A DNA stretch of 64,000 nucleotides from an uncultured Ignavibacteriales bacterium (GCA_964464605.1 CAYXJN010000004.1:124001-188000); one strand, 5' to 3'. Shown: positions 43,647-45,605, numbered from the stretch's first letter. Notes: generated by a model from the sequence alone, not told the origin. A program made the numbers and translations.

Positions 43647-44477
43647 ATGAAACATTCCGGCAAACGAAAAAGGACGCCTGCACGCAACACGATCCCAGAC
43701 GCAAGAGAGCAAGCGATGATCAGACTTAATAAATTTCTTTCCTTATGCGGCGTTACTTCCCGGCGCGGTGCCGAAATACTTATGGCCGAAGAGCGGGTAA
43801 CCATAAACGGGGAAATTGTTACCAAAGTCGGAACGATTATCGATGAAACCAAAGATGTCATTACCGTCGACGGCGCGGTCGTAAAACCGGTTCAGAAAAA
43901 AGTCTATGTAGCCATGAACAAACCGCGCATGGTTATGACGACCTTAAGCGATCCGTTCCGCCGCAAAACGATTCTGCATCTGCTCAAAGGAGTTTCCGAG
44001 CGTGTTTACCCGATTGGGCGGCTTGATTACGACTCAGAAGGTATTTTGTTACTGACCAACGACGGGGAAATGGCCTATCGTCTGGCCCACCCCCGGTACG
44101 GCGTTCGCAAGGTATATGAAGTCCGGGTGAGCGGAGAGTTTGGACCTGCACAGGCAAAGAGAATCCAGCAGGGAATACAGCTTGAGGACGGGGCGATCGG
44201 CAAGGCCCAGCAGGTGACCATTTTGTCCGCTACCGACGGGGAAACAAAAGTCCGTTTGACCTTGACCGAAGGGAGAAAGCGGGAAGTGAAGCAGCTCTGT
44301 AAGGCGGTTGGTACCCCGGTCAAACATCTCAAGCGTATAGAGTTTGCCGGGATTACCCAGCGGGATTTGGCGCCCGGTAAATGGCGCTATTTGACCCCGG
44401 TTGAGATAGAGTTTCTCATTAGAAAAGTTGGCTTAGATAAAGAGAATCATCAGGAATCTGCCCCCAAAGAAGGGTGA
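43647..44477 (+). CDS. rluB: rRNA pseudouridine synthase (RluB/RsuA family)
   Basis: S4 domain RLNKFL..G..SRR; GRLDYDSEG catalytic motif; follows scpB. Confidence 0.88.
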   Translation: MKHSGKRKRTPARNTIPDAREQAMIRLNKFLSLCGVTSRRGAEILMAEERVTINGEIVTKVGTIIDETKDVITVDGAVVKPVQKKVYVAMNKPRMVMTTLSDPFRRKTILHLLKGVSERVYPIGRLDYDSEGILLLTNDGEMAYRLAHPRYGVRKVYEVRVSGEFGPAQAKRIQQGIQLEDGAIGKAQQVTILSATDGETKVRLTLTEGRKREVKQLCKAVGTPVKHLKRIEFAGITQRDLAPGKWRYLTPVEIEFLIRKVGLDKENHQESAPKEG

Positions 44478-44482
44478 CCCTC

Positions 44483-44590
44483 TTGACAGGTTTCGGGGGA
44501 TGGAATATGTTGGCACCCTGCAATAACAATTGCACCACTGGGTTTAGCTTCTCTCTTGCTGCTACAATTGCGAAGTTAAGCCCGTTTTTA
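44483..44590 (+). ncRNA. Candidate ~70-nt small RNA with its own promoter and terminator
   Basis: TTGACA-N17-TATGTT (44483-44511); 12-bp stem GGGTTTAGCTTC/GAAGTTAAGCCC plus T tract; no ORF. Confidence 0.5.
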
Positions 44591-44608
44591 TTTCCCGAAA
44601 AATTAAGT

Positions 44609-44765
44609 AAAACAAAACCCCGGTGATGTTACAACATCCCGGGGTCGGTAATCTGTTGGGATTGAACTAATCTCCCCAACCAATTTTTTCGGAGGAGGAA
44701 ACTAGAACTCAGTCACCTCACAATAGTCTGTCATTTTACTCAGGACCACCTCCTTTCTTGTGTAC
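44609..44765 (-). ncRNA. Candidate ~155-nt RNA with extended anti-SD complement and micro-ORF
   Basis: TTGGAA-N16-TATACT promoter (44770-44797); AGAAAGGAGGTGGTCC; ORF MTDYCEVTEF (44702-44734); two hairpins, the last with a U tract. Confidence 0.55.
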
Positions 44766-44851
44766 CGCCAGTATATCTGTTTTAAGCCGTTTTCCAAATA
44801 AAAAGCGGACCCGGGGCGAAATTTCCGAAAATCACCACTTTTCGGCTTTTG

Positions 44852-44880
44852 TTGACCGCTTGGGAACCGCACTCTATATT
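44852..44880 (+). promoter_or_regulatory. Sigma70 promoter of the cyclophilin gene
   Basis: TTGACC-N17-TATATT. Confidence 0.55.
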
Positions 44881-44927: not shown

Positions 44928-45605
44928 ATGAAAAACATTATGTTGTTTACCGCGCTTTTGTTTGTTTGTACCGCCTGCAGCCAGGCTGATTCAACCAAGC
45001 AGACAACCCAAACGAAAACTGCACAAACAGGAGCAAACATGACTGAGAAAGCCACTGCCGGAGCCGATTCACTCGCTGCAAAACGATTTCCGGTTCGAAA
45101 CAAAGAAAACAAAATCGTGACGTTGGTCACCGATTTCGGAAATATGACGCTTGAATTGTACCATGACGTTGCCCCTGCCCACGCCGATTCGTTTGTTGCA
45201 TTGACGAACAAGAAATTTTATGACGGTACGATCTTTCATCGCGTTCTCAAAGGTTTCGTGATTCAGGGTGGCGACCCGCTCGGCACCGGTATGGGTAATG
45301 CCGGCTATATGCTGAAAGCGGAATTTAACCCCCTGCCGCATGAATTCGGTACGCTTTCGATGGCCCGTTCGAATGACCCGAACTCTGCATCCAGCCAGTT
45401 CTTTATCTGTCTTGGTCGCGTCGCGAGTTTAGATAATAACTACACCGTATTCGGACATCTGCTCAAAGGTTTCGATGTGTTAAATGCTATCGGTAGCACT
45501 CCGGTAGTGCCGGCTCCGCACGGTGAGGTTTCAAAACCGGCGAAGGAAGTCTATCTCCGCGAAGCCTATTTGTCGGATGCCGAAGGGAACAAGCTGAAAA
45601 AGTAA
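44928..45605 (+). CDS. Cyclophilin-type peptidyl-prolyl isomerase, lipoprotein
   Basis: Lipobox CTAC; FYDG..FHRV...FVIQGGDP, SMAR, SQFFI. Confidence 0.92.
   Translation: MKNIMLFTALLFVCTACSQADSTKQTTQTKTAQTGANMTEKATAGADSLAAKRFPVRNKENKIVTLVTDFGNMTLELYHDVAPAHADSFVALTNKKFYDGTIFHRVLKGFVIQGGDPLGTGMGNAGYMLKAEFNPLPHEFGTLSMARSNDPNSASSQFFICLGRVASLDNNYTVFGHLLKGFDVLNAIGSTPVVPAPHGEVSKPAKEVYLREAYLSDAEGNKLKK

Follow-up and report, generated by a model that had tools for sequence, protein, structure and literature searches.

What use could a bacterium have for a putative transcript of about 155 nucleotides (nt) that carries near its 5′-end a complement of the entire 3′ tail of 16S rRNA and, close behind it, an open reading frame (ORF) of only ten codons? 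The question is raised by a locus on the minus strand of a 64,000-nt stretch of an uncultured bacterial genome (GCA_964464605.1, CAYXJN010000004.1:124001-188000), here called the window; all positions are counted along this whole stretch. The host is an uncultured member of Zixibacteria, not of Actinobacteria. A first-pass annotation, made from the sequence alone, had placed on that strand a promoter, the 16S complement, the ORF with a CTG ahead of it and a GAGGTGA inside it, a CCUCC tract and a terminator, and each of them is found where it was placed. The element is almost certainly a real, conserved RNA gene of the Ms_IGR-5 family. Ribosome docking and translation are probably central to its function, and we see an even chance that the element serves as a structured mini-mRNA made to engage the ribosome rather than to supply a useful peptide.

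The annotation had recognized no named family in the element, a view that the Rfam models correct. In a permissive Rfam scan, RF02471 (Ms_IGR-5, "Actinobacteria sRNA", that is, small RNA) aligns with window positions 44609-44763 over model positions 1-184 of 184 (38.6 bits, E 1.5e-7), and no other family appears in this region at E up to 10. Of 41 relatives, 21 likewise give a match to the model, 13 scoring above 45 bits and up to 64.3; none of 14 control genomes does. Because 13 relatives lie above the cut-off and align column for column with the window copy, the latter is filed as a diverged member of Ms_IGR-5, an assignment made by a chain of homology. The ACAC 5′-end and the extended Shine-Dalgarno (SD) sequence are both present (consensus ACACAaGGAAGGAgGugGuCc, window UACACAAGAAAGGAGGUGGUCC), and GUGAGGUGRCUG is common to the two. 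In the first helix of RF02471 itself (gGugGu with gCugCc), cmscan marks non-standard pairs for the window; the covariation that we find supports another 5′ helix, P1 (CACN with N′GUG). What was known already is thus a catalogued Rfam family, and what is new is the diverged copy in the window.

A covariance model built from 21 aligned Zixibacteria copies (R1) gives 21 strong matches on the same 41 relatives. Its match to the window copy (G000:C4:168611-168764, equal to window 44611-44764) scores 122 bits. Two weak matches were false on reading, one being an ordinary SD with a terminator (G029) and the other a terminator alone (G014). Across the phylum, R1 finds the RNA in 54 of 151 sampled genomes and in 34 of 88 genera, which supplies the homologues in related genomes that the annotation had called for. 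Where present, the RNA is single-copy. One Zixibacteria genome has a second, weaker match beside its main copy (G083:C4:86744-86840, 43.3 bits). Presence is uniform within the genera tallied by name (e.g., 3/3, 4/4, 0/2), with g38 (4/5) and g5 (1/4) as exceptions.

The same design extends well outside this phylum. A scan for two core motifs, with one genome per species, returned at least 120 loci, 80 of them with titles, in at least nine phyla; the titled loci include Actinomycetota, Acidobacteriota, Planctomycetota, Latescibacterota, Eisenbacteria, Zixibacteriota, Leptospira, Heliobacteriaceae and Syntrophobacter. A Zixibacteriota metagenome-assembled genome (MAG) has a near-identical RNA. 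R1 recognizes 66 of 67 motif-selected copies from other phyla, which share 22 selected nt with it by construction; the copy that it misses is that of Leptospira. Fifteen genomes from other phyla were checked, and all of them contain one motif match and no more. Of 17 loci that are non-actinobacterial or branch deeply, 7 match RF02471 (E up to 0.01), and in these 17 the RNA is recognized by no other Rfam model. With copies in at least nine phyla, the "Actinobacteria" label of RF02471 is too narrow and the window copy is not foreign. The core conserved over this spread, far beyond Actinobacteria, is a complement of the full 16S tail joined to a mini-ORF.

The reports cited here on members of the family concern Actinobacteria. 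One member is transcribed in S. lividans (PMC8079986), another is a mapped sRNA unit in S. avermitilis (PMC8780764), and ribosome footprints lie on members in M. abscessus and M. smegmatis (PMC4974804). The M. smegmatis IGR-5 is listed as ncMSMEG15794c (PMC10454040). In the literature searched, which did not extend to the original description of 2013, we found list entries only and no functional study of Ms_IGR-5. Nor did that literature, which left aside supplements that may list the mycobacterial small ORF, yield anything on how widely the family is spread among phyla, on the complementarity to the full tail, on P1 or on the conserved frame.

Pairing with the 16S tail and the conserved reading frame

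The 16S rDNA of the same genome (L002) ends in GGATCACCTCCTTTCT. The first SD element, SD1, pairs with this tail over 16 of 16 nt with one G-U, exactly as the first-pass annotation had proposed. The predicted energy of the duplex is -27.8 kcal/mol, vs. -8.7 to -14.0 kcal/mol for ordinary SD cores of 5-9 nt. The whole genome has 2340 GGAGG sites on both strands, and at 2178 of them the in-register run of pairing with 16S rRNA is 5-8 nt; SD1 is far longer than the usual SD, as had been claimed. Only SD1 and the antisense strand of the rDNA have a run of 16 nt, and the runs that come next in length measure 15 and 13 nt. The motif AAGGAGGTGRTCC is likewise confined to these two places, which answers the annotation's call to look for the 16S complement outside rrn operons. 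The uniqueness of the 16-nt run among so many GGAGG sites puts the match of SD1 beyond chance. The 15-nt and 13-nt runs (G000:C6:176252, plus strand, and G000:C3:119308, minus strand) are ribosome-binding sites of two small ORFs, whose products are signal-peptide-like and cysteine-rich.

The complementarity can be followed in the family to the very end of the tail. The three nt between P1 and AAGGAGG lay outside every search pattern used to collect family members; they read R-G-R in 120 of 137, and the middle G is present in 135. Pairing with the last UCU of the 16S tail requires just this, and the duplex of SD1 with the tail would abut P1 with no unpaired base between them. On the other side of the core, the GGUC that follows GGAGGUG is kept in 20 of 21 relatives, and its internal partner is often missing. 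Of the two members without the middle G, one has its register shifted by insertion of an extra A. The other is the Leptospira copy, and the 16S tail of that organism differs at exactly the partner base of the lost G. In Leptospira jelokensis (L049, L194/L195) the 16S tail after CCUCCUUU departs from the usual ...CU, and the RNA copy has neither the near-invariant G nor a recognizable P1.

Such precision raises the question of whether the 16S end itself is what the RNA serves, as a guide or checkpoint that would label, shield or verify the correct 3′-end on 30S subunits that are new or idle. The complementarity stops exactly at ...UUUCU and P1 begins at the next base, and in Leptospira the near-invariant G is lost where the tail differs. 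Leptospira is a single lineage, however, and its change is not compensatory; the RNA is patchy within a single bacterial family, with the same tail in four of five RNA-less genomes checked, and the conserved ORF would be left without explanation. We hold a role of this kind to be quite unlikely. A link between the RNA and a variant 16S tail was rejected on the same four genomes.

The conservation of the reading frame is the second feature that points to the ribosome. We surveyed 135 distinct family members for a canonical start 3-16 nt after GGAGG that is open to the conserved stop. Such a start is found in frame 0 in 117, as opposed to 20 and 6 for the two alternative frames. For 128 of the 135 the stop comes exactly 15 nt after GAGGUG, and the window ORF matches in both frame and stop position. 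The stop codon itself varies (UAG 112, UGA 12, UAA 11), as does the length of the ORF, which ranges from 10 to 19 codons with the frame kept. The starts are mostly weak: among 43 sequences aligned to R1 (41 from Zixibacteria and one copy each from Eisenbacteria and Latescibacterota) they are UUG in 24, AUG in 11 and GUG in 3, the remaining 5 having AUU and no canonical in-frame start. The second codon is Lys in 23 of the 43. The window copy has the shortest frame, of 10 codons, and its AUG stands at the position of the second codon of its relatives; an in-frame CUG lies upstream (44743-44741).

The peptides, by contrast with their frame, diverge freely (MTDYCEVTEF, LKTNLCEVAAT, MNILTEVTDT). 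Only the ending -EV(A/T)xx is kept, and its codons are invariant at all three positions; the same nt form the helices P3 and P4. The annotation's suggestion that conservation be checked at both levels therefore has a divided answer: nucleotide sequence and structure are conserved, the peptide apart from this ending is not. The retention of start, frame and stop around a variable peptide suggests selection on being translated, not on the peptide.

The same data speak to the micropeptide mRNA that the annotation had offered as one possibility. An ordinary small-protein gene, in which the 10-residue peptide is the product that matters, would account for the strong SD, the start codon and the open frame, and footprints on family members have been described (PMC4974804). 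The divergence of the peptides argues otherwise, as does the fact that the ending they retain is encoded by P3 and P4 nt. In the Planctomycetota copies, moreover, direct reading shows the frame over AGGUGGCUG to be shifted by one. A functional peptide is very unlikely, since the only residues conserved are those of structurally constrained nt.

It might be argued instead that the ORF is incidental and that the RNA is a trans-acting sRNA, whose G-rich AAGGAGGUGG and GAGGUGR pair with C-rich RNAs. Ms_IGR-5 was first recovered as an sRNA, Rfam files RF02471 as "Gene; sRNA", and in the consensus fold both G-rich motifs lie exposed. Were the ORF incidental, however, an in-frame start would hardly be retained so consistently across such different lengths; the complementarity, moreover, follows the 16S tail down to its last three nt. 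In the genome, sites complementary to the conserved junction of the RNA number only two, both unremarkable, a dedicated search for conserved targets not having been made. The base-pairing account seems to us improbable.

Structure of the RNA

The secondary structure was judged on an alignment of 21 sequences, and the register of P1 on 137 family members. In the proposed structure 93% of the cells are paired, vs. 31-45% when the partners are slid, and 18 pairs show two-sided changes. P1 joins nt 3-6 of the RNA and the codon that immediately precedes GAGGUG, and three of its four pairs covary in the 21 relatives. P1 is fully paired in 108 of 137 members at the anchored register, as against at most 16 at slid registers, with A-U, G-C, C-G and U-A all seen. 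Supported by this covariation, P1 would close the loop that displays the ribosome-binding site. Inside the loop, a GUCC:GGAC helix can form in 84 of 137 members; it is common in Actinobacteria and weak in Zixibacteria, and it hardly covaries.

The second SD-like motif, GAGGUGA (44719-44713), lies within the mini-ORF. It is part of a longer element, SD2, which ends 5 nt before the last sense codon and which also provides the 5′ strand of P3. This helix pairs GGUGRCUG (44717-44710) with CAG..ACC (44655-44647), just before the terminator; it is mostly invariant and has one covarying pair. P4 holds the stop codon and has two-sided changes at five of its eight pairs. For the window copy, folding predicts a longer helix of 11 bp, formed with 44677-44667. 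The motif AAUCC-N3-CAG is kept in copies of every phylum read through to the junction and is not visible in the copies of Planctomycetota and Leptospira.

The tract just after the stop had been thought to fold back on the SD. In the relatives it is NCUCRAC and pairs in a local hairpin with GUUGGGN, completely (7/7) in 21 of 38; the mean run of pairing is 6.3 vs. 5.4 in shuffles, and the outer N-N pair switches between A-U and C-G. In the window copy, too, the predicted partner of the CCUCC tract is GGGGAG and not the SD. Since the tract is variable and belongs to a local hairpin, the fold-back is not supported and was rejected as a feature of the family. The GUUGGG can alternatively pair with the invariant CCCAAC of the AAUCCCAAC junction, the two pairings being mutually exclusive. 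Two relatives that have AUCCACAC bear a matching (G)UGGAU upstream. GUUGGG...UAAGU...CCCAAC resembles a hairpin conserved in 16S rRNA, a lead that was considered and dropped: UAAGU is a strand of a covarying helix, and the motif is missing from actinobacterial copies.

This arrangement allows another view, in which the 3′ domain (P3, P4, P5 and the AAUCC junction) binds a protein or another RNA, and translation of the mini-ORF is the switch that releases it, coupling the supply of free ribosomes to the partner. AAUCC-N3-CAG is single-stranded in the consensus fold and conserved in the other-phyla copies read to that point, translation must open P3 and P4, and a GUUGGGN with two exclusive partners, NCUCRAC upstream and CCCAAC downstream, has the layout of a switch. 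On the other hand, no gene is consistently adjacent at the loci examined, the downstream pairing of GUUGGGN shows no covariation within the clade, and the sole candidate partner tested, ribosomal protein bS21, is present in 40 of 41 relatives regardless of the RNA. A link to bS21 was for this last reason ruled out. We consider the binding-partner view unlikely.

One further scheme was rejected. The CAG..ACC strand might have admitted one ribosome at a time by switching from SD2 to SD1 whenever SD2 was occupied by a ribosome. With the stop region masked, three or more pairs of this kind are predicted in only 3 of 42 relatives, so that the switch fails in 39. In 34 of 42 relatives SD2 is the preferred partner of the strand when the RNA is free; the window copy is an exception, with 5.2 expected pairs with SD1, and its predicted fold energies are -31.9 kcal/mol with SD1 paired and -26.5 kcal/mol for the family fold.

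The gene and its surroundings

The features of the element are collected in Table 1. In 43 distinct upstream sequences of relatives, a TTTTTTnTTG ... TAT layout stands at a fixed distance from TACAC, and this constancy of the T-tract, the TTG of the -35 and the TAT of the -10 is the reason for placing the start of the transcript at about UACAC. At the other end, a terminator with a U-run closes all 21 aligned relatives, and its stem has two-sided changes at 9 of 12 pairs; a simple consensus scan missed this terminator on the minus strand.

Table 1. Features of the element in the window, listed from the promoter to the terminator.
Feature	Position	Strand	Description and basis
Promoter	44770..44804	-	T-tract 44804-44800; -35 TTGGAA 44797-44792; 16-nt spacer; -10 TATACT 44775-44770; consensus scan
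Putative transcript	44609..44764	-	About 155 nt, UACAC to terminator U-run; alignment to RF02471 and model R1, ends set by promoter and terminator
P1, 5′ strand CACA	44759..44762	-	Pairs with UGUG 44722-44719
SD1	44743..44758	-	AGAAAGGAGGUGGUCC (DNA AGAAAGGAGGTGGTCC), 16-nt complement of whole 16S 3′ tail; comparison with own-genome 16S
Mini-ORF	44702..44734	-	AUG...UAG, 10 sense codons, MTDYCEVTEF; ATG 44734-44732, TAG 44704-44702
P1, 3′ strand UGUG	44719..44722	-	Over Cys codon and first base of GAG; covariation
SD2	44710..44719	-	GAGGUGACUG, second SD-like motif and P3 5′ strand; invariant in relatives
P4, 5′ strand CUAGU, and tract	44691..44705	-	Tract UUUCCUCCUCC (DNA TTTCCTCCTCC, 44701-44691) follows the strand; covariation
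GUUGGGG and P4, 3′ strand AUUAG	44667..44680	-	GUUGGGG 44680-44674, AUUAG 44671-44667; covariation
Junction and P3, 3′ strand	44647..44663	-	AAUCCCAAC (44663-44655), then CAG..ACC; cross-phylum conservation
Intrinsic terminator	44609..44646	-	GC-rich hairpin, then UUUUGUUUU; 9/12 stem pairs with two-sided changes in relatives

The unit sits in a gap of 450 nt. On one side is an rluB-type pseudouridine synthase gene (43647-44477), on the other a cyclophilin gene (44928-45605), both on the plus strand. The rluB gene, which lies downstream in the window, is convergent, and no gene lies downstream of the unit on the minus strand. An ORF finder reports a 56-codon GTG ORF (44702-44872, minus strand); it runs through the promoter into the mini-ORF and is an open-frame artefact, not a gene. 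Elsewhere in the window, a cobalamin riboswitch (RF00174, 53187-53367, plus strand, 102.4 bits) is the sole Rfam match above its gathering score.

The neighbours of the RNA vary from genome to genome. Among 20 Zixibacteria loci (42 of 76 ORFs examined) no neighbour recurs except cyclophilin, which adjoins in three. At 49 loci from other phyla, Pfam matches in the short flanks were few (98 of 212 fragments examined), and 8-kb regions of 15 genomes from other phyla showed synteny at the level of the lineage only (52 of 109 ORFs examined). In Actinomycetota (L198, L202, L204, L205) synteny is partial: a THAP4-like heme-binding gene stands tail to tail with the RNA at 3 of 10 loci, and genes for a class IV aminotransferase, DUF1416 and rhodanese, or a FUR-family regulator, are nearby. 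FUR adjoins the RNA in two MAG loci as well. From its sequence, with a conserved promoter and terminator of its own and changing neighbours, the element is best described as a stand-alone gene, and the annotation's self-contained small transcription unit is upheld in this form.

Two lineages could be taken to suggest a leader or attenuator acting in cis on a downstream gene. On a Latescibacterota chromosome (L210 4007-5178) the RNA is directly upstream of rplM-rpsI on the same strand, and in one Bryobacterales MAG (L050) a gene for L31 is next on its 3′ side. Outside these two lineages the neighbours are unrelated to translation. The next gene in the window is convergent, each of the 21 aligned relatives closes with a terminator and its U-run, and the downstream genes vary; a cis-acting role is hardly credible.

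The window copy has no match in phage or plasmid collections. For an actinobacterial copy there were two matches, an "unverified" phage scaffold and a Nocardia replicon of 2.66 Mb. The scaffold (MT835602.1, "UNVERIFIED: Bacteriophage sp.", of faecal origin; L167 1501-1676) holds a full Ms_IGR-5 copy (RF02471, 76.9 bits), whose SD is GGAGGTGATCC, a perfect complement without G-U; with its high GC content the scaffold may be bacterial rather than phage.

A proposed mechanism and its parallels

Very long SD sequences slow the departure of ribosomes from the start, IF3 disfavours non-AUG starts, and SD-like motifs inside genes can hold elongating ribosomes. Against this background tight docking, slow initiation and a hold at the stop would all be expected of the RNA. 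We picture its action as follows. A strong sigma-70-type promoter would start the RNA at about UACAC, and P1 would form, leaving the loop to display the 16-nt complement with the start codon a few nt on. A 30S subunit could then dock through a very long SD-anti-SD duplex abutting P1. Initiation, at a weak start codon in most members (UUG, AUU or GUG), would be slow. The ribosome would read the 10-12 codons, unzipping first P1, then P3, whose 5′ strand is the GAGGUGR, and then P4, so that translation of the mini-ORF would unfold the RNA. With the stop codon in the A site, SD2 would lie 5 nt upstream of the P-site codon, at canonical SD spacing, and the ribosome could be held again. The anti-SD could in this way hold the ribosome at both ends of the frame. 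The net effect may be that the RNA holds, titrates or reports on initiating ribosomes, each passage refolding the 3′ domain.

Not all parts of this picture are equally firm. Of the annotation's proposal that the RNA traps or titrates 30S subunits, the engagement of the ribosome has gained, as selection on start, frame and stop shows that it matters; trapping is still a live reading. Parking or titration of ribosomes as the physiological role is possible, and we put it forward only tentatively. A bolder version, that this is an ancient RNA of at least nine phyla that acts directly on the small subunit, pairing with the entire 16S tail and clamping the ribosome at both ends of a frame one footprint long, we regard as doubtful. 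Were an RNA so widespread to act on the ribosome itself, it would be a new player in translation control.

Several points count against reading the RNA as a ribosome-engaging member of this family. The score of the window copy falls short of the 45-bit gathering cut-off of RF02471. Its transcript is deduced from sequence, and 30S binding is, for all family members, a prediction. Transcript data bear on neither side: of seven runs found, one RNA run, with a 0.07 share of words, gave a single 213-nt contig of a relative, less than 90% identical, which covers 44528-44737; it continues for 80 nt beyond the terminator, and carried-over DNA may be its source. The GGAGG core is moderately accessible, with a median predicted unpaired probability of 0.55, and the fold predicted for the window copy ties up the 3′ half of the 16-nt site in pairing with the CAG..ACC strand. 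The fixed position of the stop could be explained by RNA structure alone. Titration would require high copy numbers. Finally, the RNA was not found in 97 of the 151 Zixibacteria genomes, many of them 95-100% complete; in five near-complete RNA-less genomes a looser motif is missing too, and of five RNA-less genomes checked for the 16S tail four have the identical one, no rDNA having been found in the fifth. Given its patchy presence among near-complete genomes the RNA is dispensable, a poor fit with a core ribosome function.

The closest parallel is Ms_IGR-5 itself. The order of parts is the same: the ACAC 5′-end, the long SD, the short ORF, GUGAGGUGRCUG, the stop within a helix, AAUCC-N3-CAG..ACC and the terminal hairpin. 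The window copy differs in its shorter middle domain, with about 155 nt against 184 model positions, and in having the GUUGGGG hairpin where actinobacterial copies have a three-way junction.

Other parallels are with dual-function sRNAs that bear an ORF, such as SgrS/SgrT, RNAIII/hld and SR1/SR1P, whose peptides are active and conserved and whose RNAs have mRNAs as pairing partners. Like them, the RNA described here would be small and stand-alone, with its own promoter, terminator and short ORF; unlike them, it has a peptide that is not conserved, and its sole evident pairing partner is 16S rRNA. Structured mRNAs such as rpsO with S15 and the thrS operator keep the 30S subunit waiting in standby or entrapped complexes. 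They share with the present case an SD on a folded RNA, on which a 30S subunit could settle while the start codon stays outside the P site, but they are protein-controlled leaders of real genes, whereas here the RNA is free-standing and its SD is 16 nt long. In the prfB and dnaX frameshift sites, internal SD-like sequences hold the elongating ribosome, and GAGGUGR similarly lies within an ORF at a fixed short distance from the stop. The spacing of 5 nt to the P-site codon is here the relaxed one of initiation, however, and there is neither a slippery sequence nor a downstream frame.

Lastly, RMF of gammaproteobacteria and bS21 of Flavobacteria, the latter in the SD-dependent autoregulation of rpsU, are proteins that occupy or mask the anti-SD. 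The target, the 3′ tail of 16S rRNA, is the same and the outcome could be the same masking; the agent here is an RNA and not a protein. If the clamping of the small subunit considered above were true, the RNA would be a parking, hibernation or proofreading device for the 30S subunit, doing as RNA what RMF, HPF and bS21 do as proteins.

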